This document shows positions 13,464-29,840 of a stretch of DNA of 64,000 nucleotides, piece after piece (position 1 is the stretch's first letter; every line of letters starts with the position of its first letter). Made by a program: the position numbers and the translations under genes. The notes under the pieces were generated by a model that was given only the letters and a program-made list of their open reading frames with translations, was not told the DNA's origin and made no database searches. Source of the DNA: a virus. The stretch covers positions 12,472-76,471 of IMG/VR virus record IMGVR_UViG_3300045988_090463; one strand, written 5' to 3'.

Positions 13464-13826
13464 CTACCTCTCAATAACATCAAAACTGATAGATTCAGTC
13501 CTTTGGTTTCCGACCCACCACCATTTAACAGGCGCACTCCTGTCGCCAACATAAAACGTTCTGGTTTCGTATTTTCCAGACATCATATCTGGATATGTAA
13601 TTTGGATGTACTCGGGATTGAACGCTTGGAGAATCTTAGCTGTAGTAGCCCAATCTTTACCGTTCCACTGCAAAGCTAATTTCCTTTTTTGCGCTACCCT
13701 GTTTTTATGCATGACAGAGTCATCAGATCTTCCTGATTTTGCCGCTGATACGTCCTGTAATCCCCATGTGTAGGAAGACGGGCAAGGCATCGAGACATCG
13801 TTTACTTTTAAAAATATTTCTGCCAT
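13464..13826 (-). CDS. distal tail protein-like small tail component
   Basis: Start MAEIFLKV after GAGGTG. Immediately precedes the tail-tip gene (4-nt gap). Confidence 0.5.
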   Translation of the reverse strand: MAEIFLKVNDVSMPCPSSYTWGLQDVSAAKSGRSDDSVMHKNRVAQKRKLALQWNGKDWATTAKILQAFNPEYIQITYPDMMSGKYETRTFYVGDRSAPVKWWWVGNQRTESISFDVIER

Positions 13827-13840
13827 ATAACACCTCATAA

Positions 13841-13872
13841 AAGAAAAAGCACCTTCCCGAAAGAAGATGCTT
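13841..13872 (-). terminator. intrinsic terminator closing the inserted cassette
   Basis: Minus sense AGCAUCUUC...GAAGGUGCU (one G:U pair) followed by UUUUUCUUUU. Confidence 0.65.
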
Positions 13873-13886
13873 AATTACACGAAAAT

Positions 13887-13911
13887 AGCGTCTATCGCTC
13901 TGATAGACGCT
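13887..13911 (-). terminator. 10-bp perfect hairpin followed by AUUUUCG
   Basis: AGCGTCTATC-gctct-GATAGACGCT. Confidence 0.5.
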
Positions 13912-13923
13912 CTATGATTCTTT

Positions 13924-13968
13924 ATTCTATCACATATACAAGGTGAGATTCAGTAAGAAAAAGTTATA
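13924..13968 (-). promoter_or_regulatory. diverged copy (A) of the conserved late-region box plus TGaTAGAAT
   Basis: Minus sense TTTTTCTTACTGAAT-18 nt-TAGAAT. Shares the CTTACTGAAT core with the boxes at 24714 and 36710. Confidence 0.4.
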
Positions 13969-14289
13969 TTAATGTTTCTTTTGGATATCAGAAATGAATC
14001 TTTCGAATTGCTCTTTGCAAAATGTCTCATAATCCGTATTCCTCATAAGAAGTGCCCGATTCTTTAATTCTTTCAGTGCCTGCAAAAACATAGGTACATC
14101 TTTTTCCTTTACTTTGCAGATTACGACAACATAATTTTTCTCTCTGTGTTTGTAGTCCCCGCAGAATTTTACTCGGACTTTATTCTCTATAAAAATCCGA
14201 TCAGCAAGAAATCCCATTGTGTCTATGTAGGCAAATTGTTTGTTCCTGAAAAAATGACTTCTTCCAAGTTCAATATAATTAGTCTGCAT
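13969..14289 (-). CDS. hypothetical protein (106 aa)
   Basis: Start MQTNYIELG after AGAGGT. Last gene of the cassette. Confidence 0.45.
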   Translation of the reverse strand: MQTNYIELGRSHFFRNKQFAYIDTMGFLADRIFIENKVRVKFCGDYKHREKNYVVVICKVKEKDVPMFLQALKELKNRALLMRNTDYETFCKEQFERFISDIQKKH

Positions 14290-14305
14290 TTCTATATACC
14301 TCTTA

Positions 14306-14938
14306 TTAATCCAATAACGTAGTATCAATAATCTGGAAGTTTGCCCTGTGAATATAAAGGGCTTTCCCGTCGATCATAAGTTTTGTCATTTTAGGTAATT
14401 TCTTCGGAATCTTCCAATACACCTCGTCACCAGAATATGCTGTGATAGGTTGTCCGAGTTGCGATTTAATAACTACCACTCGGGATTTTCCAAAATAATT
14501 TTTATATTGGTTTACGATTCCGGCAATATATGTATTTTCATCAATCTTTCCGGTGGATTGACTGTAAATATCTGTCTGTTCAAAATCTACATCCGGTTCC
14601 AATCCGTCTTGCTCGAATATACAGGTGTCTCCGCAGCTCTGAATTTCTTTTCCGTCAATGTTGATGGTAATTACAGACGACATTTCATATCCAGTAATCA
14701 CAGAACCGTCACTGTCGTATGATGTTGTTTTGACCGGATTTCCTTTTACGTTGATTTTGTCCCCGATTGTAGTCATAACCTTTTCACCATAGTTGTCGTA
14801 TGTATGGATGGTATATCCATTTCCAGCAAGATCGCCTTTGATATCATTGAGCGTATCGTCCAACAGAGCACATCCTGTAGCCCCCGTAACGAGGAATAAA
14901 CATAAAATTGCAAGTAGCACATTTTTGAATTTTTTCAT
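14306..14938 (-). CDS. lipoprotein
   Basis: MKKFKNVLLAILCLFLVTGATGC carries a lipobox. Confidence 0.6.
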   Translation of the reverse strand: MKKFKNVLLAILCLFLVTGATGCALLDDTLNDIKGDLAGNGYTIHTYDNYGEKVMTTIGDKINVKGNPVKTTSYDSDGSVITGYEMSSVITINIDGKEIQSCGDTCIFEQDGLEPDVDFEQTDIYSQSTGKIDENTYIAGIVNQYKNYFGKSRVVVIKSQLGQPITAYSGDEVYWKIPKKLPKMTKLMIDGKALYIHRANFQIIDTTLLD

Positions 14939-14939
14939 T

Positions 14940-15269
14940 TTACCACTTCTCCTTTAACTGATTAATTGGTGTTCCAGCTACTCCGGCACTTTCTCCGCTG
15001 TCAGTAGCTTTGAAATACGCACCTTTGATTTGTGGATACATAAATTCGAACATCAAATAATTCGCAGCATCGCAAAGATACTCCGTGTTACCAGTTTTCA
15101 GATATTTTTTGACACACATATCATGAGATTCTATGGCATTTACCAATTTCTCGCCGAAATTATCTTTTGCAGTGCCGTATTTGTAAAAACTGACTTCTAC
15201 TCGATTTTGTCTCAGTTCGTCAAATCTGTCTGAATACTCTGCTGGCATTTCTTTTCCAAGTCTACTCAT
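14940..15269 (-). CDS. hypothetical protein (109 aa)
   Basis: Compact ORF in the cassette. No motif I can name. Confidence 0.45.
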   Translation of the reverse strand: MSRLGKEMPAEYSDRFDELRQNRVEVSFYKYGTAKDNFGEKLVNAIESHDMCVKKYLKTGNTEYLCDAANYLMFEFMYPQIKGAYFKATDSGESAGVAGTPINQLKEKW

Positions 15270-15381
15270 TTCTTTCTCACTTTCTAATTAATTACTGTAT
15301 CGTTTTCCATCTAAAATCCATTTGAAGCATCTATGTGAGGAAATAATCGCCCTCTGTATTTAAAATAGATTTTAGGCTGTT

Positions 15382-15669
15382 TTATTCAATGAATATCTGT
15401 CCTTCATATTTTTCAAATCTGTACTTCTGTGAAATATCTGGATATTTTTCTTTATCAACCAAACTGTAAAACATTTTTTGTGGTCTGGCATATAGTTTTC
15501 TTTCTCCATACAAAGCACGGTAAATTATCAGCGGTTCGTCTGTCTCTGTATGCTTTGCTTCGCCGACAATCTTATACAGGTAATCATTGCTCCGCAAATC
15601 ACTGACGGTTTCTCTCTTGAAATGTTTTACTATGTCCCCCGGTTCAAACAATGGTCTGTCTATTGGCAT
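15382..15669 (-). CDS. DUF1653-like protein
   Basis: The pattern [10 protein letters not shown]...[36 protein letters not shown] matches my recollection of DUF1653. Confidence 0.55.
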
Positions 15670-15673
15670 ATTT

Positions 15674-16702
15674 TCATTCCTCCCGTTTCTGTTTCACGCG
15701 GTTATACAAAATGTTCTGTGTCCTTTCTGTGAAGAACAGCCAGATACGATAATCGCAACCCATACCGTTATTCTTCCCAATGTCAGAGCCGAAATATTCG
15801 TCCATCATGTCCAGATAATACCCCGGCTCATCGTCCTCTTCGACTATTCCGTCTTTCACCATATCCAAGTCAGCATTTCGAATCATACTCAGGAACTGGT
15901 CAAGGTCATTTGCGTAGACTATCGGATGTCGTTCTCCTCGATACTGTTTGAACTTTTCAAAAAACTGTTTGACCAATGCCATAGTCAGGCAGATGTCGTG
16001 GTCTTCCAAAATATCTTCTTTGTCCCCGTACAGAGAATTAAATCCATTGTACAGGATTGTCGGTAGTTCTTCGTCTTTGTAATCGACAGAGCGATTCTTT
16101 TTCGCATGTGCGTACCGTTCCTGCTTCTGCTCTTTCGTTCTAGGTGGTATATTATTAATATTTATATTATTATTAAGAGCAGAAGTCTTTACTCCTTTAC
16201 CAGACGATGGTAAAGTCTTTTCCTCTGCACTTGATAAAGTACAGTCTTTATCTGTATCAGTAATTGATTTATCAGTAGTTGATATATCAGTTCTTTTATT
16301 ATGGGGGTGATGTTCTACCTCTGGGACTTCTAGGGCTAGGGTTTCTATACCTTGAAAAAAAGCCTCTTGATTATTGTTATTGTCAGATACCTCATGCGGA
16401 GTTTCGTAAATGTTATAAATGTACTCAAACTTAGATCGTCCCTCTTCTTTGCAAGGCTTTTTCTTATCCACAATAAGATACCCCGTTGCTTTTAACTCTT
16501 TTATGGTTGATTTCACTGCCGTTTCATTTTCCTTTAAAATTGCACATAACCCGGGAATAGAATAGTTCCAAGAATCCGGTAATGAAAACATTACAGATAA
16601 AAGCCCTTTTGCTTTTAAACTCAAATCCTTATCTCTAAGATGATGATTACTCATCAGCGTGTAATTCTTTGTTTTGTGTACTCTAAATACTGCCATAATC
16701 AC
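15674..16702 (-). CDS. winged-HTH protein of mobile-element initiator/regulator type
   Basis: N-terminus [43 protein letters not shown]. Asn-rich linker. 342 aa. Confidence 0.5.
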
Positions 16703-17421
16703 ACTGCCTCCCTTTCTGAATTATTAAGTGGAATTTCACTGAAATCTCGAAGTATATCTATTCCACTATGAAACAGTTCGGAAGAATCTTCTGTTTTGCA
16801 ATCTTCATTAAGAACCGGATTATTTTCAGCGATAAGTAATATTTCCAAAATGTTTGTATCTGCAATATTGTTCACTGTATAAAACATTACTCGGGTAATT
16901 TTTGCTGAGTTTTTTCGTTCCCTATAAGATGACGTGATTCTTTGCGATAAATCAATTGATTTTCCAATATATAAAATGGTATTGTCTTCGCCAATAAAAG
17001 CGTATATGCCATGAACTTTATACAAATTATCACACAAAAACAGCATTGATTCTATCGGAAAATCTTTACTACACTCAACGACATCTTCATTGTTCTTTTC
17101 TATAATGGATTCTCTCCATAATATCCGTGCATATGCGTCTTTATTTTTTGATATAAAGTCAGATACATCACCATATCGACTATTCTCATCAAATCTTTTG
17201 TATCCATAACAAGCCCGTGAAATTGCATTAGCATAATCAATTTGACGAACACTCGCTTTTTTCCAATTGCATTTTTTATATTCCTCTTCGTGTTCTCTGA
17301 TAAATTCACTGACATCATAATAACTATCGCTTTCACTAAAAGCTGCTTCAATATTCAGCGCATCAGCAATTGCTCTGGCAAATTTTAATTGTCTTGGGGA
17401 AACTAATTTTCGACCGTTCAT
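16699..17421 (-). CDS. GIY-YIG nuclease with a duplicated N-terminal domain
   Basis: GIYAFIGEDNTILYIGKS...R...E motifs. Start MNGRKL follows GGAGG. N-terminal repeat is SPRQLKFARAIADA / SVRQIDYANAISRA. Confidence 0.7.
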   Translation of the reverse strand: MNGRKLVSPRQLKFARAIADALNIEAAFSESDSYYDVSEFIREHEEEYKKCNWKKASVRQIDYANAISRACYGYKRFDENSRYGDVSDFISKNKDAYARILWRESIIEKNNEDVVECSKDFPIESMLFLCDNLYKVHGIYAFIGEDNTILYIGKSIDLSQRITSSYRERKNSAKITRVMFYTVNNIADTNILEILLIAENNPVLNEDCKTEDSSELFHSGIDILRDFSEIPLNNSEREAV

Positions 17422-17479
17422 ATAGATAACCTCCATGTCGTTAATGTGTGACTGCCTTGTAGCCACAGATCCATGATTT

Positions 17480-17541
17480 ATAAAAACAACAGGCAGGTGC
17501 ATCATGGAATTGCACTTGTCCCCCGTCGGGTTAGCCTGTTG
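17480..17541 (-). promoter_or_regulatory. second leader hairpin plus U-tract
   Basis: CAACAGGC...GCCTGTTG followed by TTTTTAT, about 60 nt before the GIY-YIG start. Confidence 0.4.
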
Positions 17542-17553
17542 GTTTTACCAAAC

Positions 17554-17613
17554 AAAAAAGAGCACACCAAAGAATCGTGAGGTTTTTCCCTCGTTTCATC
17601 TTTAGTGTGCTCT
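17554..17613 (-). promoter_or_regulatory. first leader hairpin plus U-tract (attenuator-like)
   Basis: AGAGCACAC...GTGTGCTCT followed by TTTTTTG, about 35 nt downstream of the cassette promoter. Confidence 0.45.
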
Positions 17614-17644
17614 CTTCAACAAATGTAATAACTATTTCTCGTTT

Positions 17645-17673
17645 AGTATATCAAATTCTACCGCAAAAATCAA
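17645..17673 (-). promoter_or_regulatory. near-consensus promoter of the cassette
   Basis: Minus sense TTGATT-17 nt-(TGa)TATACT. The -35 overlaps the tape-measure stop codon. Confidence 0.55.
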
Positions 17674-20600
17674 TATGCCGGGGACGGATTCATACGGTAA
17701 TCTGTATTATTTTGAGCTTTTGTGACAATTCGCGCCAGTTCACGTTCGTTCACCTTGATGCTGTTCATGATGTACTCTGGTGAAGAACCACCAAAGCCCC
17801 CATTGTTCATCAAAGCAGTAACTACTCCACGCTCGACAGCTTCCATGATCTCATCTTTCGTAAGCCCCATGTTGCCGTCATATCCAGACATGATGCTGTC
17901 GGCAATGGATTTCATGGCTTTACGATTTTCCAAAGGAAGAACGGCTTCCTGTCCTGCTTCGCCTACACCAATGACAGATGCATTTTTGAACAAACCACCT
18001 TTTGCATACCAGTTTACACCAGAATCCCATCTGTAGGACATACTATTGCCACTTGCGGATGCACTAGAATTCATGTAGATATGTGGTGTTTTGATATGGA
18101 CAGACTGCAATCCATTTGATAATTCTTGCGCTGCATTTCGACCGACATTGTACAGTCCGTTCAAACTTTTCGATATATTATTGGCAAGTCGAGTGAAATA
18201 TTTTGACATAGCTGGAACTTTGCTGCTGAGAACAGAATCCAGAGTATCAATAATTTGCCCCTTTCCGGTGATACGCTCTGCTGCTTTTTCCCATTTCTTT
18301 GTCATAGTATTATACTGTGATGAAAAATGGGATTCTACAGTTTTCTGCATTTCTCCCAGTTTCAAGTTGGCTGCTTGCTTCATTGAATCAAGGTTTTTGG
18401 AAACCTCTTTTGCAGAACTTCCCCATTGCGTTACAGTTGCCGTAGTGACTCCCTGCGAAGATTCAGTGGCTTTTGAATGAATTGCCTCATAATCGCTCAT
18501 GGCAGTACTCTTCATATGACCAGTAGCTTTTGTTACCGCACCTGCCGCATCATTGAAATCTCTGGTGGTATTCCATCTAATTTCTGATGTTTGCTTAGAC
18601 ACAGATTCTTTTGCGGTCTGAACTGCATCGGGGAATGTTTCTGCAAAAATCTTTGCAACAGATTCCGTATTCAATCCCATTTCTTTTGCGGTTGCCATGA
18701 TGTTTTCATAAGCTCCCTGAGCTGTGCCACTTGCATTAGGCATATCGTATAATGCGGTATTAAGTTGAGTCTGTTGGTCAGAATTTAATCCCAACTGAGT
18801 AGTTAACTTCGGAAGGACTTCTGCCAACTCATCAACAGAGTATTTGCTAAGATTGAGACTACCTGCCATATTCGTTGATTTATCACCTAATGTTTTGATA
18901 GATTCTGATAGAATATCAAACATATCATCCGTGATAAGTCCTTGCTGATACAAAGAAGAAAATGCCTGTTCTGCCTGATCTGATGTCACTCCCATTTCTC
19001 CGAGTTTGTCAATTATCTTCTGAGTTGCCGCAGATTGCTCTTCTGCTGTCATTCCTTCTTTTTCGAGAGATTCTTTCAAGTTCCAAATTTCCGTTGCAGA
19101 ACCAGATATTATGTCGCCACGTTGTTGTAATGTCTGAATGAAATTATCCATGGTATTGCCAAATGTGGTTCCTACTCCATTGCCGCCTTGCATACTTTCT
19201 ACCATACCGGCAATTTTAGAAGTTGCATAAACCGCCGCTGCACCTACACCAACAATTAATCCCGCTGTACCTACCAATGGTCCCAACTCTTTTGCCAGTG
19301 AAGCGAATTTCCCACCAGATGTTCCTGCCGCTTCGCCCAGTCCGTCAAGAACTTGTGTTGCTTCGGATGTTCCTTGTCCAAGAATACTGGATAATTTTTC
19401 GGCAATAATATCAGCGCTTTCTTTTGCCATGATTTTATCACCGATATGACCGATAAGTTTTCCGACAAGTGTTCCGATTCCTGTGATATCTGCGATTTTT
19501 ACAGCAACAAAAGCTGTTGTAAGACCGGCTGTGATCTTTCCGGACAATCCGCTTTCCCACAGTCCAGACATTGCTTCGCCAAATCCGCTTATAAGCAATT
19601 TGGCGGCTGTTGCAAGTAATTTTCCCCATGGAAGTTGCCCGATAAAATCGCCAATGCCTTCTCCAAGCTTTCTGAATGTATTAGGAGTTAATGCATCTGT
19701 CAGGGCATCGCATAAATGGCTAAGGAAGTCTCCGAGAGCCTTTCCATTCTCTTTCCAGTGCATATCGGATATAAATTTGGAAATCCCATCGCCAAGATTT
19801 TTAGTGAAGTCATCCCAATTGAATGTTGCTGTAAAGCTTGCAAGTGCTGTAAATGCGCCGTTTATTCCAGTTGTTAATGCACTAGCAATTTCTGTAAAAT
19901 TAATTTTCTCAAATACGCCATTAAGGGCATTTCCGATATTAATTCCGATTTCGTCATATTTAAGATTTGAAACAAAACCATAGAAAATGTGCCAGCTCTT
20001 CATAAAGTTATTACCAATCAAATTTCCAAGATTAGTCCAGTCAACTTCACGAGAAAGCCCCATGATGCCTTCTGCGAATTTCTTGCCAAGGTTTTTAAAA
20101 TTCGTTCCCTCAAGCAACTGATTGGCTGTATTAACTATTGTATTAATGCCGGCTCCTACTGTACGTCCCATCAAATCCCAGTTGATATTATCAACAAGGC
20201 TGTTGAAAGTCTGGGTGAACGCACTGGTAAATTTAGTGATGTAAGGGCCTACGTTATTCCAGTTAATGAAATCATAAAGCTTTTGCATCCCCCAGTTGAT
20301 GCCGTCAGCCATGATTTTTCCAAGACCTTTCCAGTCTTTTCTTTTAAAGGCATTTACAATGGCATCTGCCATTTCATTTGCCCTGTTGGACATCTTTTTA
20401 AAAGCTTCGTCCCATGCTTTTTGATATGCAGATAAAGCATCATCTAATGCAGCATCAAGCGCTGGAAGATGTGATGCGCCACCGCCAGAGCCAGAAGATG
20501 GATTACTTGTACTACCAGAATCAGAATTGTCATTAAGCTGATTCAGTTGGTCAAACGCAAGGACTGACAATGTTTTTTCGAGTTTTTTTGCGCTGGTATT

Positions 20601-22424
20601 GGCATTGTCAATCGCACCACTGGCATTATCCATATTATCTGCAATATCTCCAGTATCTACAGAAATACCACCAGTAGATGATACAAAGTTTGACAGTTTG
20701 ATTCCAAGCAATTTTGCAATATAAGCAAACATTCTTTGTAATGCGATTACGATTGCATTGATATACGGAAGAACTGTTTGCAGTATAGGAATGAATAAGG
20801 AACCTATTGTTCTACCAAGGGATGCAAAGTTAGCTTGAAGCATACGAATCTGATTTGCCGGTTGATTGATCGTGTTTGATAAATCAGCCCATGCATACTT
20901 AGAGTTGTTCAGCAAGATAATCGTTCTTAGAATCGTTTTATCTGCCTGAGACAAATTCGATATGCTGGTATTAATTCCAAGATTATATAGTTCCTGTTGC
21001 ATGTTGGCATTACGGATATTGATGCCGTACTTGTCCATTGCACGGCTCATACCAGTCAAGCCAGATGCCATGTCCTGCCATACATCCTCGAAGTCCATGT
21101 TTCGTACAGAAGCAAGGTCAGCACCAATCATAGTGAGTGCATTAGACAATTTTAAGGCAGTCTCTGATGTATCGCCCATAGATGATGCCATCTGTGCAAA
21201 TGTTGCCTGATACTGCATTGTCTTTTCTGGGTCAAGTCCAAGACTGGCGGTATTGGTTCTAGTCAGTTCGCCAGTATCTGAAATTTCGAATCCTGTCAGT
21301 TTCTGTGAAAGCTGTTTTGCTCTTTCTTGGAATGAATTTGCATACGCTTCAGCAGATTTTATGCCACTTTTCTTCCATTCGTCAGTGTCGATCCCTTCTG
21401 CCACCTGATTGAATGCAGAGTTGAAGTAGTTCAGCGTCTCTACATAGTTCATTGCGGATTCTACTGGCGATGTCAGAACATCTAATGCTCTTTTTGCGAG
21501 GAAACCTTTGGCGTAAAGAGCACTCAACTTATTTGTTACCGAACTCAGAGGATTTGACAATCTTCTTATTTTTTCGCCAGCTTCAGAAGATGCATTTCCA
21601 ATACCTGCGATTGCAGATACGGCTTTTCCGCCTAAAGAAATAGCTTTTGAAGCAAATTTTTGAAAAGCATTTGTCAGCCCATGGATTACAGTACTTGCTT
21701 TTGAACCTAACGAAGAAAGCGTGTTGAATGAATTCGAAACGCTATTTGTGGCACGCCCTACTTTACTTCCAGACGATGCTAATACTGCAAGTGCTTCTGT
21801 CATTCTTATTGTGCTCGAACTGATATCTGGTGCGCTTTTCATTGCGTCAAAAAACTTCAAAACCTCTTGTGCAAGAGTTGATAATTGACTTGCAGTCTTT
21901 CCAGTTTTATCTCCTGCACTAGCTAATTTTCCAAGAGAAGTAATAAAAGCATTGGTGGATGCTGATACCTCGCTCATAGAGCTTAATTTAGTGGCTGCAT
22001 TATTTAAACCTGTCGCAAGATTCGGAAGTTCCTTTGATACATTGCCGATATACTGTCCTGTACCGGCAAGTTTAGCTATAGCGGTTGTGAACCGGCTAAC
22101 GCTCGGAGAAACATCTGGAATAGCATCAAGTTTCTGCATCTCGGTAAGAATTTCGCCTAATTTCCCTGTATCAAACTGACTAAAATCAGATTTTCCAAGA
22201 CGATTGATAGCGTTTATAGCCGCATTCAATCCATTTGCTTTAAAATTCACACTACCTAAACTTTTTAAAGAATTGGAAAAATTATTTAACCGACTTATGT
22301 CAAGATTTCCAAGGGCAGTGTTTAATGTATCTAATTTTTTTACAAGGTTATTAATAGACCGTACCGCCTGAGTTGTGCTACTGCCTATTTGTATATTGAG
22401 GGTATCTATGGTATTATCGGCCAT
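17670..22424 (-). CDS. tape measure protein
   Basis: 1584 aa, helical and repeat-rich with Gly/Ala-rich TM-like segments. Lies downstream of the chaperone pair. Confidence 0.9.
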   Translation of the reverse strand: MADNTIDTLNIQIGSSTTQAVRSINNLVKKLDTLNTALGNLDISRLNNFSNSLKSLGSVNFKANGLNAAINAINRLGKSDFSQFDTGKLGEILTEMQKLDAIPDVSPSVSRFTTAIAKLAGTGQYIGNVSKELPNLATGLNNAATKLSSMSEVSASTNAFITSLGKLASAGDKTGKTASQLSTLAQEVLKFFDAMKSAPDISSSTIRMTEALAVLASSGSKVGRATNSVSNSFNTLSSLGSKASTVIHGLTNAFQKFASKAISLGGKAVSAIAGIGNASSEAGEKIRRLSNPLSSVTNKLSALYAKGFLAKRALDVLTSPVESAMNYVETLNYFNSAFNQVAEGIDTDEWKKSGIKSAEAYANSFQERAKQLSQKLTGFEISDTGELTRTNTASLGLDPEKTMQYQATFAQMASSMGDTSETALKLSNALTMIGADLASVRNMDFEDVWQDMASGLTGMSRAMDKYGINIRNANMQQELYNLGINTSISNLSQADKTILRTIILLNNSKYAWADLSNTINQPANQIRMLQANFASLGRTIGSLFIPILQTVLPYINAIVIALQRMFAYIAKLLGIKLSNFVSSTGGISVDTGDIADNMDNASGAIDNANTSAKKLEKTLSVLAFDQLNQLNDNSDSGSTSNPSSGSGGGASHLPALDAALDDALSAYQKAWDEAFKKMSNRANEMADAIVNAFKRKDWKGLGKIMADGINWGMQKLYDFINWNNVGPYITKFTSAFTQTFNSLVDNINWDLMGRTVGAGINTIVNTANQLLEGTNFKNLGKKFAEGIMGLSREVDWTNLGNLIGNNFMKSWHIFYGFVSNLKYDEIGINIGNALNGVFEKINFTEIASALTTGINGAFTALASFTATFNWDDFTKNLGDGISKFISDMHWKENGKALGDFLSHLCDALTDALTPNTFRKLGEGIGDFIGQLPWGKLLATAAKLLISGFGEAMSGLWESGLSGKITAGLTTAFVAVKIADITGIGTLVGKLIGHIGDKIMAKESADIIAEKLSSILGQGTSEATQVLDGLGEAAGTSGGKFASLAKELGPLVGTAGLIVGVGAAAVYATSKIAGMVESMQGGNGVGTTFGNTMDNFIQTLQQRGDIISGSATEIWNLKESLEKEGMTAEEQSAATQKIIDKLGEMGVTSDQAEQAFSSLYQQGLITDDMFDILSESIKTLGDKSTNMAGSLNLSKYSVDELAEVLPKLTTQLGLNSDQQTQLNTALYDMPNASGTAQGAYENIMATAKEMGLNTESVAKIFAETFPDAVQTAKESVSKQTSEIRWNTTRDFNDAAGAVTKATGHMKSTAMSDYEAIHSKATESSQGVTTATVTQWGSSAKEVSKNLDSMKQAANLKLGEMQKTVESHFSSQYNTMTKKWEKAAERITGKGQIIDTLDSVLSSKVPAMSKYFTRLANNISKSLNGLYNVGRNAAQELSNGLQSVHIKTPHIYMNSSASASGNSMSYRWDSGVNWYAKGGLFKNASVIGVGEAGQEAVLPLENRKAMKSIADSIMSGYDGNMGLTKDEIMEAVERGVVTALMNNGGFGGSSPEYIMNSIKVNERELARIVTKAQNNTDYRMNPSPAY

Positions 22425-22444
22425 TAAAGCACCTCCTTTTAATC

Positions 22445-22486
22445 AAAAAAATAAAGGGCAGACAAGACTTTTAATCCTGCCTGCCC
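22445..22486 (-). terminator. hairpin plus U-run overlapping the end of the chaperone ORF, just upstream of the tape measure
   Basis: Minus sense GGGCAGGCA...UGUCUGCCC (one G:U pair) followed by UUUAUUUUUUU. Confidence 0.5.
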
Positions 22487-22833
22487 TCGTCATTATTACC
22501 ATGATTCAACTCAAAATTTGCTTGCATGAGTTGCAATGTCATGAGCAACCTGTCACGTTGCCGTTTCTTTTCTGCTTCAGAAAGATTCTCTTCATCCTCT
22601 TGCTTTTGCTTTTCAGCTGTTTGTGAAAATGGCTCTTTAAGGTATTCAGCCTTTGACTTTTTACCAATAAGCACATTTGCAACCGCAGTCTGAACTGCAC
22701 ACATTGTGTACATGTTGAACTGCCATGCTTCTGCATCTGATACTTTACGTTTCAAGTTGTAGGCTTCCATGTATGGTTCTAAATCATATGGTGTGGAATC
22801 CCAAAACTTTTCCTCAGAAACGCCAATAGACAA
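22471..22833 (-). CDS. tail assembly chaperone, frameshift-extension (T-like) ORF
   Basis: Its frame is open upstream to 22968 and lies at -1 relative to the G-like ORF. Confidence 0.6.
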   Translation of the reverse strand: MSIGVSEEKFWDSTPYDLEPYMEAYNLKRKVSDAEAWQFNMYTMCAVQTAVANVLIGKKSKAEYLKEPFSQTAEKQKQEDEENLSEAEKKRQRDRLLMTLQLMQANFELNHGNNDEGRQD

Positions 22834-22874
22834 ATAAAGTGGAAGTAGCTTTTTATGGACTACTTCAGGAAAGC

Positions 22875-23297
22875 TCAGCTCTTCTTCTTGTGATCCTGCG
22901 GAGTCTTCGGAAGTTTCTTTTCTTCCTCCGATTTCTCCTCCATTGCTTTTACCATTCCGGATAAAAAACCGTTCTTCTCAAGCTCCTTGCTTGCTTTTTC
23001 AAATAAAATGAATCCATTCTGAGGATTTTCCTCTGTGGATTCATCTTCGTAATCATCCAGAAGGTCACATACCTTTTCATATGCAACTTTCTTTTCCTCT
23101 TCGGTTTCATACCCAAATTCATCTTTGTGTTTTCTTTGCAGTCCTGCCAGAATCAGTTCTGGAAGCATTTTAATCATATCTTTCGGATTATTGATTGCCC
23201 CCATAGAAGACACCTGTGTAAGAATGTCCGACTGAGTAAGCACTCCGTATCCGAATTTTACTTTGTATGTTTTATCATTTACTGAGAAACTAAACAT
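22875..23297 (-). CDS. tail assembly chaperone (G-like)
   Basis: 140 aa, acidic C-terminus. Lies between the major tail and tape measure genes. Confidence 0.65.
   Translation of the reverse strand: MFSFSVNDKTYKVKFGYGVLTQSDILTQVSSMGAINNPKDMIKMLPELILAGLQRKHKDEFGYETEEEKKVAYEKVCDLLDDYEDESTEENPQNGFILFEKASKELEKNGFLSGMVKAMEEKSEEEKKLPKTPQDHKKKS
22962..22968 (-). promoter_or_regulatory. -1 programmed frameshift slippery heptamer T_TTT_TTA
   Basis: In the zero frame GG[T TTT TTA] (codons 110-112 of the G-like ORF). The -1 frame is open from there to 22471. Confidence 0.6.
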
Positions 23298-23321
23298 GAA
23301 TTATCCTCCCTGATCTACATC

Positions 23322-23801
23322 TTATTCAGCAGCCGCTGTCGGCTCAATTTTGGTATCCAGTCCCTTATATGTATTGATGATAAGAGAAATAGACATGGTT
23401 GCTGCTTCGTTCTGTGCAATTTCTGGCATTGGAATTTCGCGACCGCATTCCGCAATAACAAAGAATGCGTCGGACATATCCGGGAACGACACCTGAAACC
23501 AGGTTGCCAGTCCTGTAGTTTTTGCAGTCTTAGAATCTTCGTACAGTTTTTTAATCTGTTTAACAGATTTGTCTGGATCCATGATGAATTCAATTTCCCA
23601 TGTACCACCAGTATCCTGTCTACCAGCTGCATACTGAGTTATATAATCTTCCAGCGCAGAAACGTCAATCTGTTCTGTGTCAAGAGAAATACCGCCGATG
23701 GAAGAGGGTTCTTCCAGCTGTGTGAATTTGGTAGGTTTTGTGTCTTTCACGGTTTCAACGGCATATGAAAATTTCACACCAAGTGTAGTTAATCGTGCCA
23801 T
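23322..23801 (-). CDS. major tail protein
   Basis: 159 aa. Strong SD. Lies upstream of the chaperone pair. Confidence 0.65.
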   Translation of the reverse strand: MARLTTLGVKFSYAVETVKDTKPTKFTQLEEPSSIGGISLDTEQIDVSALEDYITQYAAGRQDTGGTWEIEFIMDPDKSVKQIKKLYEDSKTAKTTGLATWFQVSFPDMSDAFFVIAECGREIPMPEIAQNEAATMSISLIINTYKGLDTKIEPTAAAE

Positions 23802-23842
23802 TATTCGGCTCCTTTCTGCCTTTCGGCTATAAATTATTACAA

Positions 23843-23865
23843 TAAAAAAGAGCCTTAATGGCTCT
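23843..23865 (-). terminator. hairpin AGAGCC-AUUAA-GGCUCU plus UUUUUU upstream of the major tail gene
   Basis: Seen directly in the sequence. Confidence 0.5.
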
Positions 23866-23913
23866 GGTTCTAGTACGTAACCCTGTACCGGGAGATAAAA
23901 GGATCACCTCCTT

Positions 23914-24207
23914 CTAGTCTTCTTTGCTTGCCTGCTTTACGATCTGATTTACATAATTACTAAGTCCTGCAACGAGGATTCCCTGTGTGATTGCGGTAAA
24001 AATTGCCATTGCGATTTCCTGCGCGCCAGATATAGCGCATGTAGCAATAACATAAATTCCACAAATCAGAATGCCTAAAGCACCAAGGATTGCCGGGATA
24101 TATTTGTCCGGTATGACTTCGGACTTTTTAATACCCATTCCGATAAAGTACAGTACAACCGCAACAATAAGAAGTTCCGGTTTCACGTAATTCATAATCT
24201 GCTCCAT
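23914..24207 (-). CDS. holin-like membrane protein (three TM segments)
   Basis: 97 aa. KPELLIVAVVLYFIGMGIKK...IPAILGALGILICGIYV...ITQGILVAGLSNYVNQIVKQ with a charged C-terminus. Confidence 0.55.
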   Translation of the reverse strand: MEQIMNYVKPELLIVAVVLYFIGMGIKKSEVIPDKYIPAILGALGILICGIYVIATCAISGAQEIAMAIFTAITQGILVAGLSNYVNQIVKQASKED

Positions 24208-24224
24208 ATTTTCTCACTCCTTTC

Positions 24225-24626
24225 CTAGAGTAATGTACCGGTATAAATCCGGCTATATCTGCTAACAACACGTTTTATGCTGTTATCAGCATTATTCTGT
24301 CTTACAGGCCCGTATATCCTACGAAACCCCATGTCAACCATGGCCTTGTGGCTGGCATCGTCAATTTCATATACTTTTGAAGAAGCTTTTGAACCAGTCG
24401 CATAGGATTCTGATTGGAAAGATGGTGTTGTCGCGCACTCATCCCCCTCAAGATTGCCACGTGATGTTGGATTTCCAAGCAAGAACAAACGTGCGTAAAC
24501 CCTTTTGTTTGAAGCTATCGTCTGACTTTCGTCATTAGAAAAGTTCCCTTTTCCTATAACGGGTTCAATAGTTGTTTTCCATCGTTCAAATACGTCTGAA
24601 ACTGGATTTTTCACTACATCTGGCAT
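24225..24626 (-). CDS. hypothetical neck/tail-completion protein
   Basis: Start MPDVVKN after AAGGTGGTG. The ORF-track N-terminal extension covers the terminator and box. Confidence 0.35.
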   Translation of the reverse strand: MPDVVKNPVSDVFERWKTTIEPVIGKGNFSNDESQTIASNKRVYARLFLLGNPTSRGNLEGDECATTPSFQSESYATGSKASSKVYEIDDASHKAMVDMGFRRIYGPVRQNNADNSIKRVVSRYSRIYTGTLL

Positions 24627-24652
24627 CTCTGTCACCACCTTGTTTTGAGCAT

Positions 24653-24684
24653 AGAAAAAGCACCCACCATTCCGGTAGATGCTT
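24653..24684 (-). terminator. hairpin plus U-tract downstream of box B
   Basis: Minus sense AGCAUCUACC-GGAAU-GGUGGGUGCU (two G:U pairs) followed by UUUUU. Confidence 0.6.
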
Positions 24685-24695
24685 TTATATCTTAC

Positions 24696-24739
24696 AGTAT
24701 ACATAAAACAGACGTTATATTCAGTAAGAAAAGGTGTTA
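24696..24739 (-). promoter_or_regulatory. conserved late-region box B plus TGTATACT
   Basis: The 26-nt box at 24714-24739 is identical to 36710-36735. The extended -10-like element lies 13 nt beyond it. Confidence 0.5.
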
Positions 24740-24744
24740 TGTTT

Positions 24745-25263
24745 TTATGCAGAAAACACTTCTTTTGCTATTCTGCGGATATTTTGCATAATTTCTACGC
24801 TTGCTTTGTACACGGGCATTGTAGCCTCCGTACCGTAAGAACGTACCCATTCGCCAGAATCAGAGACATATACCCACGATTCATTTTCTCCTTTACCCTG
24901 TCCGTAAGAACCAATAGTATATCCAAATTCTTCTCCTTTTGGATGGGGGCTTGTTCCTGCCGGAGTGTTGTACGAAATACCTGCACCGAATTCTATGAAT
25001 AAAAGCCCAGAACCCTCGCACACAAGAGTTGCCTGCGCGTAATTTCCGAACCTGTTGATTTTGATGTAGGTATTGTGGTTTTTATCAGAATCTCCCTGTG
25101 CCAACATAATATTTTCGTCTATGACAGGAATTCCCAATTCGCAAAGTCTTTTAAGAAATACTTCATTTTTATCGCGAAGGCTGTTTTGATATGCTTTCAA
25201 CTCTTTGATTGCATTTCCAATAGATTTTTGACTCAGATTGCATTTGATTACTCGTCCGCTCAT
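24745..25263 (-). CDS. neck / head-tail joining protein (HK97 gp10-like position)
   Basis: 172 aa. Call rests on position. Overlaps the upstream gene by 4 nt. Confidence 0.4.
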   Translation of the reverse strand: MSGRVIKCNLSQKSIGNAIKELKAYQNSLRDKNEVFLKRLCELGIPVIDENIMLAQGDSDKNHNTYIKINRFGNYAQATLVCEGSGLLFIEFGAGISYNTPAGTSPHPKGEEFGYTIGSYGQGKGENESWVYVSDSGEWVRSYGTEATMPVYKASVEIMQNIRRIAKEVFSA

Positions 25264-25646
25264 TCTTCTGCACCTATCTTTTTAATTCCATATCTAGCCA
25301 GATTTCCTCTTTGCGTATCAAGAATTTTCTTCAAACGGTAATCTGGCGGTGTTGTAGGAATACCATCTTCCAGAACCAGATTTCCCAATGTGTCAACCTG
25401 TGGCACGGTATCAATCCAAAATACATCTCCCTCTTGCGGATGAAAAGAACGGTTAAAGGAAGTAATGTATCTGTCGTAATCCGGCACGATTCCTGCCGAT
25501 ATTTCCTCTGGTGTTCCTGCGGTAGATGATACAGAAAACTTAAAGCTTTGCGGTTGACTGTATGTCGGTACGGTATCTATTCCCTCAAGTGTTTCGGTTA
25601 CTCTTGACCAGTACACGGTCTGTTTCTGTCTTTTTAATCCTCTCAT
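25260..25646 (-). CDS. head-closure / head-tail adaptor protein
   Basis: Start MRGLKRQKQTVYW. Call rests on position. Confidence 0.4.
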   Translation of the reverse strand: MRGLKRQKQTVYWSRVTETLEGIDTVPTYSQPQSFKFSVSSTAGTPEEISAGIVPDYDRYITSFNRSFHPQEGDVFWIDTVPQVDTLGNLVLEDGIPTTPPDYRLKKILDTQRGNLARYGIKKIGAEE

Positions 25647-25795
25647 AATACTTTCTCCAATGCAAAAAAAGGAGAACATTTCTGCTCTCTCCTAAATGGT
25701 TGATTGTTTATTTTATTTCAGTTTCGCTCTGCATTTCTTCAGATTTATCCATATCAGAATCTGCATTGTGGTTCGCTACATTTAGCCCTCTTTAG

Positions 25796-27649
25796 TTAAT
25801 ACCAATATCCTAACGCCTTGCCTTTGTCATAGACAGCTTTTGCTACTATTTGATAGTACCAGTAATTCCCATGAACAGAATCACTTCTTAAGCAAGATGG
25901 AATAGTGCCTTTTTCAATAAGTGCCTTATCATCTTCCGAAGGGGTGATGTTTGCACCGATGCTGTTTGCGTAAGCAATTCCATTTTTACAGATATAATCT
26001 CTTATATTCAAATAATTAGCACCAAATTCAGCATAAAATTCTTGTTCTCTGACAGCATTTCCACTTGATGTTCCTGTTGGTAACGATATCACAATATGTT
26101 TTTCATTACACATAGATTTTGCTCTATCTTTTGCACTTCCTTGCGTGATGTATTTACCATCATGCAATGGTGCATCATTCTGCCCCATCCAAATGATTTT
26201 GATAGCATTATCAAACTCTTTGTAGGCATTAGTTATGATTGGAGTTCTACAAACAAGAGTTTTTTCTTCTCCATTTTCTTTTCGTGTAAAGTAATAAGCA
26301 AATGTAGAACCTTGCACTGTTTCTCCTGTATCGGGGTCTGACTGTCCACTTGAAATTAAGGTTCTTGTAATTTTTCCTTCGATGCCGCCAATAGATACAG
26401 GATTTACTCCACTATGGACATCATCAACTGCAATGTTGTAAGAAAGGTTATCTTTGAGATAAGTCCATGCGTTTACAGTATTATCCCAAAAATAATCCTG
26501 TTCCTGTCCATGTAAGTAAATCCTTACTGCTGTAATCTCCGCTGGAATTGTAAATGGTTCTGCACAAATTTCATTGTGCCCGCTTCTAGCGGAAATCATC
26601 CAAGATGGTTCACCGCCAACACCTAAATTGATAACCGGTTTGTTTAACATTCTGCTTAATATACTCGGGTATGAAGTGTCTTTATTTACATCACTACTCG
26701 GTTTTCCTCTGTCACTTCCAGTACCTTGTGTTAGTGAATCACCCCAACACACAATTTTTTCTTCTTTAAGATTTTCCTCTGATTGCAAATAAAGTATTTC
26801 AATACTATTATCAGATATAATATTTATACCATCAAAATTATTTAATAGACCACCAACACCGTGTTGAACATCACCAACGAACGAACTATAGCCAGTAGAT
26901 ATATTTTCTTTATTTACGAAGATGTTATACCACTCTATTGCAGAATCTATTAATACAGTACCGTTTAAATTTGCATAAAACATAAATACTAAATAGGTGT
27001 CTGAATTTAAAATGAGCTTTGTCACCGAGCTTTGTTTATCCATCGAAAGCTGAATACTTGAATATTGATTGTGCGTTATATTACCATCCTTATCGCATAA
27101 AGATATATAAATAAATCCTATGTTTCCTGTTGCAGATCCGCTTAATAGTTTAAATGAAGAACCACACATATACGTCCCGGCCTTTAAAAATATAGGTTTA
27201 GACGTTATTTGTTTAAACTTTTCACCTGCTTTCACGGTAGCACTTAATTTATCTTTCACAGCAGTTATATTTGATAATGATGCTGAAAAACCTTGTATGC
27301 CAACATCTGCGATACAAGGAAACATATTTTTATAATAAGACATGACACGACTGTCTGTTTCGCTGTTCCATTTTATTTTAGATAATGGTTTCAAATTATT
27401 AAAATCAGAGCCATTGTTCCTGTATAATGTACTGAATGAACCAACAAAGTCGTTTAATTCACCTATGTCTTCCTTTAGTGAATCAGTTTCTGTCTTTACT
27501 TCCTTAAATTTGTCCCCTACTACTTTGGAGTCGGCAAATGCTCCCTCGACGCTCAAAGTTTTATCTGCGATAGGCTTGTCTGCTAAGCCTGGATACCCAA
27601 TTGGAATATCTCCGTTTTGAGTATGGATTTTTAAAATTGATCCTGCCAT
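25796..27649 (-). CDS. fibre-like protein with an SGNH/GDSL hydrolase domain
   Basis: N-terminal fibre motif KTLSVEGAFADSKVVGDKF. GDSL block IVCWGDSLTQGTGS. 617 aa. Confidence 0.7.
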   Translation of the reverse strand: MAGSILKIHTQNGDIPIGYPGLADKPIADKTLSVEGAFADSKVVGDKFKEVKTETDSLKEDIGELNDFVGSFSTLYRNNGSDFNNLKPLSKIKWNSETDSRVMSYYKNMFPCIADVGIQGFSASLSNITAVKDKLSATVKAGEKFKQITSKPIFLKAGTYMCGSSFKLLSGSATGNIGFIYISLCDKDGNITHNQYSSIQLSMDKQSSVTKLILNSDTYLVFMFYANLNGTVLIDSAIEWYNIFVNKENISTGYSSFVGDVQHGVGGLLNNFDGINIISDNSIEILYLQSEENLKEEKIVCWGDSLTQGTGSDRGKPSSDVNKDTSYPSILSRMLNKPVINLGVGGEPSWMISARSGHNEICAEPFTIPAEITAVRIYLHGQEQDYFWDNTVNAWTYLKDNLSYNIAVDDVHSGVNPVSIGGIEGKITRTLISSGQSDPDTGETVQGSTFAYYFTRKENGEEKTLVCRTPIITNAYKEFDNAIKIIWMGQNDAPLHDGKYITQGSAKDRAKSMCNEKHIVISLPTGTSSGNAVREQEFYAEFGANYLNIRDYICKNGIAYANSIGANITPSEDDKALIEKGTIPSCLRSDSVHGNYWYYQIVAKAVYDKGKALGYWY

Positions 27650-27659
27650 GAACTACCTC

Positions 27660-27992
27660 CTAAAAAATAAGTACACCATCATCATTTACAGTTGGCAAAA
27701 TAGGGTTTTCATTCAAATAATCAGATATAATTTCTTTTACCTGTTCTTCCGTGATGTCACCGATTGACCCAAGTGAATCCCATGAGGTTCCATTCCACAC
27801 AACATTCATTCCTGCGCCACCGTAAATTGATTTTTGCTCAATATTGTACATATCGCCAACAGACGGACTCAAAGGAAGTAGATCGGATGTCACTACACTG
27901 CCTTTGTATAGAATTGGATATTTTAACTTATTTTCCATATTGCTTACTTTACTAAGCAAAAGTGCGTATACTTTTTTTGCTGTTAATGCCAT
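27660..27992 (-). CDS. small fibre-associated protein
   Basis: Motif VGDMYNIE...GMNVVWNGTSWDSLG. Confidence 0.4.
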   Translation of the reverse strand: MALTAKKVYALLLSKVSNMENKLKYPILYKGSVVTSDLLPLSPSVGDMYNIEQKSIYGGAGMNVVWNGTSWDSLGSIGDITEEQVKEIISDYLNENPILPTVNDDGVLIF

Positions 27993-27996
27993 GTAA

Positions 27997-28245
27997 TCAG
28001 CCTCCTAATTTGTACCATGTATCAGTTGGTTTGTGATATTCGTATAATTCGGACGTATCAAGACATAATGCTGATGAACCGCTTTGTACGTAATGTGGAA
28101 GTTTCGCCACGTCCTTTGACAGCCCTTCATAATCACGAACCATACCTCTTGCATCCGTACACACCCAACTGCCTAAATCCGGCAACTCGTCGCCAGGATT
28201 ATACTTGATGCCGTCGAAAATAACTGTGTTTTCTGCTTTTGCCAT
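27997..28245 (-). CDS. hypothetical protein (82 aa)
   Basis: Abuts both neighbours. Confidence 0.4.
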   Translation of the reverse strand: MAKAENTVIFDGIKYNPGDELPDLGSWVCTDARGMVRDYEGLSKDVAKLPHYVQSGSSALCLDTSELYEYHKPTDTWYKLGG

Positions 28246-28632
28246 CTATGCAATCATCCTTTCTGCCCCAACAGGAGCTACATAAGTGAATTTGTTCCCT
28301 AATATATCTCTGGCTGTACCAATGACAAATTGTCCGTAGTCTGCCAGAATATTGCACACAAATTCCTCTGCATCCACCCAGTATTGCTTCTTGACCATGT
28401 GGTGAAGTTCTGGTAACAGACCGTAGCTGAACATCACGCAATGCCCTAATTCATGGATAAACACACGGTTCAGAAGTTCCCCATATAGATTATTTGCAAT
28501 CGAAATTGTCATTGTGGAATAATCCGATACCGCAAGTGTTCTCTGCCCTGTACGGTCAATCAGAACATCATCATGGGGAGAAACAAAGTGAACTTTCCAT
28601 AAGTCCCCATTCATGTAAAATTGTCTTAGCAT
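28246..28632 (-). CDS. HExxH zinc metallopeptidase-like protein
   Basis: FIHELGHCVMF motif. 128 aa. Confidence 0.55.
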   Translation of the reverse strand: MLRQFYMNGDLWKVHFVSPHDDVLIDRTGQRTLAVSDYSTMTISIANNLYGELLNRVFIHELGHCVMFSYGLLPELHHMVKKQYWVDAEEFVCNILADYGQFVIGTARDILGNKFTYVAPVGAERMIA

Positions 28633-28710
28633 GGTTTATCACCATCCTTTTCTCAAATAAAAAGTCCCTGTCACATTTCTGTAACAAGGACTAAATTTAA
28701 TTCTTATTTG

Positions 28711-29337
28711 TTAATTCATCTGCTGTATCAGACGAGTTAAGTCAGTTTTCATCGACTGCCTGAGTGTTGCGTCTGCATCTGACCACATCTCTGTAAGATT
28801 ACGGATAATGTCAGATGTATACTCTTTCATGGAATCATCCATTTTTCTCTTAGATTCTGTATCATTGGAATCATGGTAATGCCTGCGATTCTCACTGTAT
28901 CTGTCATAGCTTTCGCCATATCTGGACTGCTTATGGTTCATTCCATCCATTCTCATATCACTACGATCTGGATGATAACCCATGCGGTACATATTACGTT
29001 CAAACTCTGGATTGTTCAGATACTCTTCCATCCAGTCATCATCTTCCATGTACAAATATGGTTTATATCCCATACGACTTCCTTTGCCTTTCGGGGCAAA
29101 TCTTCCATTGGAATAACGATACCTGTCATATCCCATGCGTCCAAGATACTTTTCTTCCTGTTCACATTCGTCCATAGCTTCTACGATTCTGTAATCCTTA
29201 TCTGCACAAATCGCACACTTTACGGATTCCATGCAGTCTTTCAAATCGTCCCAGTCTTGAGCGCTGAGATTATCAAAGCCATGTGTTTTGGCTTTTTCCA
29301 TAGCCCATTTTCCCATTTCCATTGCAACTTTATGCAT
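28711..29337 (-). CDS. low-complexity Tyr/Arg/Asp/Met-rich protein with three RMGY repeats
   Basis: GRMGYDRYRY, SRMGYKPYLY and YRMGYHPDRS. 208 aa. Confidence 0.5.
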   Translation of the reverse strand: MHKVAMEMGKWAMEKAKTHGFDNLSAQDWDDLKDCMESVKCAICADKDYRIVEAMDECEQEEKYLGRMGYDRYRYSNGRFAPKGKGSRMGYKPYLYMEDDDWMEEYLNNPEFERNMYRMGYHPDRSDMRMDGMNHKQSRYGESYDRYSENRRHYHDSNDTESKRKMDDSMKEYTSDIIRNLTEMWSDADATLRQSMKTDLTRLIQQMN

Positions 29338-29762: not shown

Positions 29763-29840
29763 ATTTCTACCTCTCAATCAAAATAAGAGGTGAGCCGTAA
29801 CCCACCTCTTAGAATTAGTCAACCTCTAAGGGTGAGTTAC

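Follow-up and report, generated by a model that had tools for sequence, protein, structure and literature searches.

Morons, as defined by Hendrix and Juhala and exemplified by the gene 15 moron in the tail operon of HK97 (PMC3594210), are the closest described counterparts of the locus analyzed here. The locus is a block of six genes (17421–13969) between the tape-measure gene (TMP, stop at 17670) and the DUF6711 gene (start at 13826) of a siphovirus-type phage, most of whose genome is contained in a 64,000-nucleotide stretch of an IMG/VR record (IMGVR_UViG_3300045988_090463, positions 12,472–76,471). This stretch is hereafter called the window; all coordinates refer to it unless a relative is named, and the genes and signals of the block are read on its minus strand. 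The leader of the block carries an RNA motif, int-alpA, for which the nearest parallels are the C4 RNAs of phages P1 and P7 and the CI RNA of P4. In phage P1, one set of C4 targets covers the ribosome-binding site of the next gene. The rep genes of Gram-positive plasmids such as pT181 and pIP501 are controlled by countertranscripts or through their leaders. The first gene of the block, finally, invites comparison with free-standing homing endonucleases (PMC10448857).

With the morons of lambdoid phages, the block shares its place, as extra DNA between tail genes that are adjacent in relatives, its non-structural cargo, and a promoter and a terminator of its own, both predicted from the sequence only; its base composition is mildly different from that of the surrounding genes. 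It differs from morons in being many-gene and hypervariable, whereas a moron encodes a single membrane or exclusion protein; in combining a structured leader RNA with Rep-like and nuclease genes; and in that its 3′ hairpins come after a second promoter-like element. On position and signals, the block appears to fit the moron definition; on composition, the fit is weak at best.

We consider it probable, though well short of certain, that the region is a hypervariable moron-like island, in which modules are swapped within a conserved frame, the int-alpA leader acts as a switch in cis, and transcription from promoter P1 is independent of the late operon. The island's core is best read as an RNA-controlled gene for a Rep-like winged-helix protein, with a GIY-YIG nuclease gene as its invader. 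Most interest attaches to the leader, where comparative data on a known orphan RNA motif point to a putative loop/decoy/ribosome-binding-site switch ahead of replication and nuclease genes.

A hypervariable island in a fixed frame

For the comparison, 80 IMG/VR loci were retrieved through the DUF6711 protein, and the TMP-to-DUF6711 interval was measurable in 74 of them. In distant relatives (L064–L067, L070, L071, L073 and L074; DUF6711 approximately 60–68% identical), TMP and DUF6711 are only 7–51 bp apart, with a small hairpin alone between them. An initial annotation of this DNA had viewed the tape-measure and distal-tail genes as natural neighbors, which holds for these relatives; the name 'Dit', however, reflects position only, as no function is known for either DUF6711 or phrog_1194. 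Close relatives (DUF6711 97–99% identical) have 1.7–3.8 kb at the junction, in about 35 arrangements across the 74 loci. The six open reading frames (ORFs) of the window were confirmed at the coordinates originally described, and this exact set recurs in one of the 73 other loci (L009). Thus, comparing relatives for exactly this block, as had been proposed, does return empty sites, but the block itself varies from locus to locus.

The frame is conserved. On the 5′ side, it comprises the TMP end, promoter P1, a hairpin (hp1) and the leader; on the 3′ side, it comprises the second promoter-like element (P2) and two hairpins (T3 and T4). The leader and the 3′ region are 96–100% identical among loci of varied content, with 96–98% identity over the 3′ 130 bp. 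Inside the frame, an optional first-gene slot is occupied by a GIY-YIG gene (of two kinds), an HNH gene, Rha with a partner, a small HTH protein or an acidic secreted protein. A core-gene slot (340–410 aa) follows, with the Rep-like protein, the commonest cargo, in 38 loci and another winged-helix protein in 18, the C-terminal stretch of which resembles that of the Rep-like protein as judged by eye. The small-gene slots are taken by DUF1653 or an alternative, a 109-aa ORF, DUF5052 and a last ORF. Extra first genes in relatives are flanked by the direct repeat TTTGGTAAAA, and in many relatives an 858-bp deletion with microhomology has removed DUF5052 and, with it, the last ORF's 5′ part. Because the frame is conserved while the modules vary, the block is a hypervariable island, that is, a recombination hotspot inside a fixed frame and not one mobile unit, and its gene modules are swapped by recombination between the conserved 5′ and 3′ frame. 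The existence of empty sites, together with the highly variable gene content, also supports the view that the block is dispensable.

The hotspot is natural and heavily sampled, it belongs to an abundant gut-phage family, and its genes are swapped within a fixed regulatory frame in the middle of a tail operon. This makes it useful for understanding phage mosaicism, and a site that tolerates inserted cargo could help phage engineering.

Two variants of the junction stand apart. In L054, L056, L057, L058 and L059, the promoter, the hairpin, the second promoter-like element, T3 and T4 are all kept, and approximately 820 bp of AT-rich non-coding DNA replaces the genes (about 7175–7989 in L054); this DNA matches nothing in Rfam, and neither of its strands has a convincing ORF. 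In the divergent relative L086 (7400–14650), a 6.8-kb island occupies the same TMP/DUF6711 junction, with HTH_36, Big_2, ORF6N, AntA/ORF6C and HNH genes, two genes being on the opposite strand.

Signals of the frame

Promoter P1 (17645–17673) consists of a −35 element TTGATT (17673–17668), which overlaps the TMP stop codon TGA (17672–17670), a TG (17653–17652) and a −10 element TATACT (17650–17645). A match of this type alone is not above chance (24 found vs 18.6 expected). The positions of the −35, TGn and −10 elements are constant in seven versions with unrelated spacers, including TGATATACT, TGGTAATAT, TGGTATAAT, TGTTATTAT and TGATATAAT, and the promoter named in the initial annotation can be retained on these grounds. 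Approximately 20 nt past the predicted transcription start begins hp1 (17546–17616), a long imperfect hairpin (17616–17556) followed by a U-tract, the stem of which is kept via compensatory changes among versions.

At the other end of the island, the promoter-like element P2 (TACTGAAT-N15-TGATAGAAT; 13924–13955) faces the distal tail genes. It is conserved in four otherwise divergent 3′-end versions and is unique in the window, where 0.01 matches are expected. P2 lies upstream of the terminator-like hairpins T3 (13911–13887) and T4 (13872–13847), and in one version it runs directly into the DUF6711 ribosome-binding site. The U-tract of T4 abuts this same site (ATG at 13826), and the T3/T4 region shows compensatory changes in L061.

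The two terminators that had been described as closing the block are therefore present as hairpins, but they form no special barrier, since the late operon is punctuated by similar ones. Indeed, the late region has 31 terminator-like hairpins where 13.1 are expected, mostly strong, intergenic and on the coding strand; examples on the minus strand of 20001–40000 are those at 36674, 35106, 31707, 29811, 28692, 25689, 23865 and 22488. With such hairpins throughout, late transcription must pass them in general, and their excess suggests either that late transcription resists terminators or that the hairpins serve in the processing or stability of RNA.

The int-alpA leader as a candidate switch

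The leader folds into a structure far more stable than its shuffles (z = −4.9). Two hairpin-plus-U-tract elements had been assigned to it, of which the first stands as hp1, whereas the second (17480–17541) is part of a three-way-junction RNA, int-alpA (17470–17541; Rfam RF02996). The match is full length (model positions 1–71 of 71), with 52.2 bits against a gathering score of 35.8 and an E-value of 6e-8 for the whole window; variants in relatives score 45–57 bits. The closing stem (stem P1; 17541–17534 paired with 17494–17487) encloses the hairpins P2 (17530–17521) and P3 (17515–17497), and is extended on its 5′ side by UUUGGUAAAACC (17541–17552), which is also the direct repeat flanking the extra first-gene inserts. 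The P3 loop, UCCAUGAU (17508–17501), pairs in a predicted pseudoknot with site 1, AUCAUGGA (17477–17470), which is found 8–14 nt after the closing stem. A further hairpin, P4 (17447–17467), obtained by folding and showing compensatory changes among variants, separates site 1 from site 2. The latter, CAUGGAGG (17430–17437; gaCAUGGAGGuuaucuauAUG in the window), is complementary to the P3 loop over 6 nt, with the core CAUGGA, and overlaps the Shine-Dalgarno sequence GGAGG of the first gene.

The comparative data support this structure. Across 19 distinct int-alpA variants and 16 pairs, 95.1% of the cells are paired and 7 pairs are changed on both sides; the covariation score was reached by none of 500 shuffles, and slid controls were 25–47% paired. 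The compensatory changes fall in three helices and in the pseudoknot. Four loop/site 1 classes occur in the window's phage family (CCATGAT/ATCATGG, CCGTAAT/ATTACGG, CCTTGAT/ATCAAGG and ATGCCTTG/CAAGGCAT), and two further ones, in L085 and L086, bring the total to six. Cognate loops and sites form 7–8 Watson-Crick base pairs, as opposed to 3–6 for non-cognate combinations, and in each of the six classes the P3 loop has changed in concert with both site 1 and site 2.

The gene that follows int-alpA is of two kinds. Fourteen related loci have two copies of the motif, one before a nuclease gene and the other before the Rep-like gene; the variant before nuclease genes keeps the fold without the U-tract, and in L085 the motif stands before a Rep-like gene whose genomic surroundings are different. 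The core of the island is the winged-helix Rep-like gene with int-alpA ahead of it. The locus has taken up homing-type nuclease genes on repeated occasions, and some relatives have a nuclease gene that comes with an int-alpA copy of its own. In the window, the GIY-YIG gene sits between the leader and the Rep-like gene.

We infer that the leader would work as a translational switch in cis for the first gene. In one state, the P3 loop would pair with site 1, a decoy just 3′ of the closing stem, and the resulting pseudoknot would leave the ribosome-binding site free; in the alternative state, the same loop would pair with site 2 over the Shine-Dalgarno sequence, and translation would be blocked. 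An excised or terminated int-alpA RNA may, in addition, act in trans on matching leaders. The island itself would be transcribed from promoter P1, independently of the late operon.

The logic of such a switch would be that of the phage P1 C4 and P4 CI immunity RNAs (RF01695, target family c4-a1b1). Like them, int-alpA is embedded in a leader and has two hairpins within a closing stem; the loop of the second one is complementary to targets that recur along the transcript, and close relatives differ in their loop/target classes. Furthermore, the operon controlled in P4 holds a replication gene. Unlike them, int-alpA has one antisense loop instead of two, a short closing stem of 8 bp, and both targets downstream; nor does it match them in sequence. 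Membership of int-alpA in the P4 CI RNA family was considered and rejected: P4 CI RNA is Rfam C4, and P4 has no int-alpA. The C4 covariance model, which finds P4 CI RNA at 74.9 bits, gave no match in 13700–17800 at E-values up to 5. The likeness thus appears to be a functional analogy, not family membership. With pT181 and pIP501, the island shares terminator-like elements in a structured leader that precedes a replication-initiator-like gene; it differs in that the int-alpA complementarity lies within the same strand, and no antisense promoter was found in the leader. The sequence UGGUAAAAC upstream of the motif was also considered, as int-alpA's own −10, and was rejected in the window's family, where it abuts the closing stem.

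Two minor observations concern the loops. P4 loops are complementary to P3 loops of other int-alpA classes (window 17447–17467; leaders of L011, L015 and L003). Thus, CAAGGCA in the P4 of the window matches the loop TGCCTTG of the nuclease-associated class, TCATGG in the P4 of L011 matches the loop of the window, and ATTACGG in the P4 of L015 matches the loop of L011. This could be a relic of tandem units or reflect cross-class regulation. In L086, the int-alpA-like element scores below the Rfam gathering score, and its loop CCUCCAA pairs with UUGGAGG.

int-alpA in other phages

A wider set was built from contigs that contain one exact 18-mer of a common int-alpA variant; it comprises at least 120 viral contigs from many environments. 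Among the matches listed, to which all counts in this paragraph refer, 91 of 98 distinct cases have a start codon 68–89 nt past the motif. The loop is complementary to the Shine-Dalgarno sequence over at least 5 nt in 90% of cognate vs 19% of non-cognate pairs, and to site 1 over at least this length in 71% vs 7%. The downstream proteins form two main groups, of the same types as the first two genes of the window's cassette: replication-initiator-like proteins (DUF1376/YdaU, 13; HTH_36, 8; DUF927, 2; DnaT, 1) and nuclease-like proteins (HNH_3, 9; HNH, 6; HNH_5, 3; further NUMOD3/4, GIY-YIG, T5orf172, EndoVII and LAGLIDADG).

In these other phages, a −10-like hexamer often lies 4–7 nt upstream of the closing stem, and int-alpA is therefore usually the 5′ end of the mRNA. 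For an Rfam motif with no function found described in the searchable literature, these data provide a concrete and testable mechanism. If confirmed, it would tie together the regulation of replication genes in phages, specificity classes based on RNA, and the way in which selfish nucleases choose their homing sites.

In L092, L101 and L108, the 3′ end of a tRNA gene (...GGTTCGAATCC...) is followed immediately by int-alpA, so that tRNA processing would create the 5′ end of this RNA. In L085 (1352–1438), a tRNA lies approximately 330 nt upstream of int-alpA.

Genes of the island

The first gene (16699–17421, 240 aa) likely has its true start at ATG 17421, with GGAGG visible 8 nt upstream. Its product combines a tandem N-terminal repeat domain with a C-terminal catalytic domain, as the initial annotation had it: the catalytic domain matches PF01541 (E 9e-6; 26.4 bits vs a cut-off of 22.6), with UvrC/Cho-like matches in addition, and the two N-terminal repeats, of about 45 aa each, are 37% identical (E 3e-9). 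NCBIfam returned UvrC-type matches only, and the GIY...YIG, Arg, Glu and Asn residues can be seen directly in the sequence. The stop codon overlaps the GTG start of the Rep-like gene (GTGA). This nuclease gene is present in 7 of the 74 loci, and elsewhere the same place is taken by an HNH gene, by another GIY-YIG gene or by none, which agrees with the homing type proposed earlier; the gene behaves like that of a free-standing nuclease.

Several features agree with the comparison. As with free-standing homing endonucleases, GIY-YIG and HNH genes sit here at a mosaic boundary with presence/absence polymorphism, and repeated N-terminal domains before a C-terminal nuclease domain are known from the 'beads on a string' nucleases (PMC10448857 for both). 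The nuclease is, moreover, linked to the flanking allele, as co-conversion would produce. The differences are that the repeats of the published nucleases are of zinc-finger type, unlike those found here, and that the site of insertion here is linked to a structured leader RNA; cleavage and homing at this locus are predictions.

The Rep-like protein (15674–16702, 342 aa) has an N-terminal winged helix (HTH_36, 29.5 bits), a disordered linker and a helical C-terminal domain. The PHROG family 'replication initiation protein' matched at 1.5e-19, and PHROG initiator families ranged from 1e-19 to 1e-8. The family is large, with 12,736 clusters at 50% identity, and in other phages (L089 and L090) homologues of the N-terminal domain are found within replication/recombination modules, in the place of the initiator. 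The protein is unrelated to the phage's own DnaD-like protein. An AlphaFold model (mean pLDDT 63.8) shows the winged helix; neither this model with Foldseek against the PDB nor profile searches placed the C-terminal domain. Sequence searches of the PDB with four cassette proteins and with the Rep-like family profile gave nothing significant. The gene is itself mosaic: the N-terminal DNA-binding domain swaps at 16257, while the C-terminal domain is kept.

The remaining genes are small. The DUF1653 protein (15382–15669, 95 aa; E 8.5e-19) is found in 27 loci, and the orphan ORF of 109 aa (14940–15269) in 37, second to the Rep-like gene. The DUF5052 lipoprotein (14306–14938, 210 aa; E 8e-74), with a lipobox (...LVTGATGC) seen directly in the sequence, is found in 11. 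The last ORF (13969–14283) encodes 104 aa from its likely start, ATG 14283, or 119 aa from an upstream TTG. The 109-aa and last ORFs gave no family match, even in low-threshold Pfam searches. These searches uphold the winged-HTH, DUF1653 and lipoprotein assignments made earlier from the sequence, and the annotation bears out that none of the six genes is structural. Defence cargo, which had also been suggested, was not recognized by PADLOC: a marginal GIY-YIG-domain match to PDC-S14 (E 1e-3) was the only hit, and the other five proteins had none.

The 112-nt intergenic region between DUF1653 and the 109-aa ORF (15270–15381) contains a 16-nt inverted repeat (15311–15326/15360–15375). It is a module junction and is 99% conserved where loci share both neighbors.

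Weighing the explanations

Several points count against the moron-like island with an int-alpA switch. In the window's phage family, the start codon is approximately 100 nt from the motif and the extra hairpin P4 lies between them; the switch geometry therefore differs from the common form. The site 2 complementarity is short, 5–7 nt (4 nt in L085), and falls in a purine-rich region with a background of 19%. Rfam classes int-alpA as an sRNA gene, not as a cis element, and the gene statistics of the wider set come from a biased sample, drawn with one exact 18-mer and confined to the matches listed. The Rep-like assignment rests on PHROG names and gene neighborhood, with a mediocre model. In composition, the block is only mildly different from the late region (36.3% vs 39.6% GC), the GIY-YIG gene (32.9%) and the last ORF (33.7%) alone standing out. 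Finally, promoter activity, termination at hp1 and expression in the lysogen are predictions drawn from the DNA.

A bolder view, which we put forward tentatively and would not favor at present, extends the argument to int-alpA as a whole. It would be a widespread phage riboregulator acting in the manner of the C4/CI immunity RNAs. Its hairpin loop and two cognate targets would make up interchangeable specificity classes, which would set the expression of rep genes and of the homing nucleases parasitizing them, in cis and possibly in trans between phages that reside together. The island would be a selfish combination of a rep gene, its leader RNA and a nuclease gene inside a tail operon, and the six classes, which occur among near-identical phages, would be incompatibility or immunity types.

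It is unlikely, in our judgment, that the island is a counter-weapon against competing phages or satellites, in which the Rep-like protein would recognize the origin of a rival and block it or, with the nuclease, cut it, as a split version of Odn, the origin-directed nuclease of phage ICP1. Such a role would suit the exchange of N-terminal winged-helix alleles at breakpoint 16257 on a constant C-terminal domain, the 4-nt overlap of the nuclease and Rep-like genes, and the fact that the phage already has DnaD-like and DnaC-like replication genes. It would also suit the Rha, AntA and ORF6N regulators in relatives' versions of the island, and phage-satellite conflict offers a precedent, the fusion of RepA_N domains to homing-type nucleases (PMC10448857). 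In one allele (L043, cluster c34), a 401-aa core protein, an N-terminal HNH nuclease appears to replace the winged helix; only the HNH domain was tested, and the C-terminal likeness to other alleles was judged by eye. However, PADLOC gave no match, no target element was identified, and most loci have the Rep-like gene without a nuclease gene. Nothing here separates a counter-weapon from a plain selfish nuclease beside a replication gene.

Nor do we give much credence to a second working replication module, with an initiator, an origin inside the initiator's own gene, and RNA control of the kind known for plasmid rep genes. The PHROG match and the initiator position of Rep-like homologues in other phages are in line with it, as is the common placement of int-alpA before DUF1376/YdaU, DnaT and DUF927 genes among the matches listed. 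A 15-nt tandem repeat (16255–16291; 90% matches) could furnish the origin, but it has 2.5 copies only and lies in the coding linker of the Rep-like gene, at the recurrent breakpoint 16257. It was the sole yield of a repeat search for terminal repeats or iterons. Furthermore, the island has no helicase-loader or primase partner, the fold matches to RctB domain 1, primosomal DnaB and a Rep–DNA complex are non-significant (Foldseek vs PDB, best E 0.028), and relatives with an empty site do without the module.

The mobile option of the initial annotation corresponds to a discrete element (a satellite, a transposon or a homing cassette) that was inserted once as a unit. We now regard this as very improbable. 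Empty sites in distant relatives, a nuclease gene and the direct repeat around extra first-gene inserts are what one would look for in such an element. The repeat search, however, found no terminal direct or inverted repeats at the ends of the block, and domain and PHROG searches found no integrase or transposase among its genes. Its ends are conserved signals of the phage backbone, kept even in the cargo-free loci of the L054 type; its modules assort independently; and the six-gene set is shared with a single other locus. Of the 'mobile or moron-type module', the moron-like part thus survives, by position and signals, and the self-contained mobile part does not.

That the hairpins of the leader simply terminate the tape-measure unit in the ordinary way, and that the match to int-alpA is functionless here, is scarcely credible: U-rich tracts do follow both elements, a hairpin does lie between TMP and DUF6711 even at empty sites, and the late region is full of such hairpins, but the Rfam match is full length at an E-value of 6e-8, compensatory changes affect three helices and the pseudoknot, the nuclease-associated variant keeps the fold without a U-tract, and the motif recurs directly upstream of genes, including in second copies inside the island.

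The phage and other features of the window

Genes in the window are read on the minus strand. They include those of a methylase, a radical-SAM protein and the DnaD-like (57329–58213) and DnaC-like replication proteins; a serine integrase (54036–55769) and a tRNA cluster are also present. The structural genes comprise terminase, portal, major head protein, tail proteins and TMP (17670–22424), and the block is followed by DUF6711, a 1150-aa tail protein, an endolysin-like protein and an anti-repressor. The nearest named protein matches are from Blautia obeum, and the phage is a member of a family of roughly 80-kb temperate siphoviruses. A megablast search with the block region gave no match among GenBank phages, and a literature search on int-alpA, DUF5052, DUF1653, DUF6711 and DUF6017 found nothing informative.

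A cluster of tRNA genes for Ser, Tyr, Met and Gln and, close by, the gene of a 388-aa HNH endonuclease occupy 44102–45287 and 47064–48230, on the upstream side of the packaging genes. In L081 and L083 (4231–9317), gene calling splits TMP into two ORFs, of 524 and 1086 aa, that are approximately 250 bp apart. TMP is a single ORF in L082 and L084, and the split may be an insertion, an intron or a frameshift.

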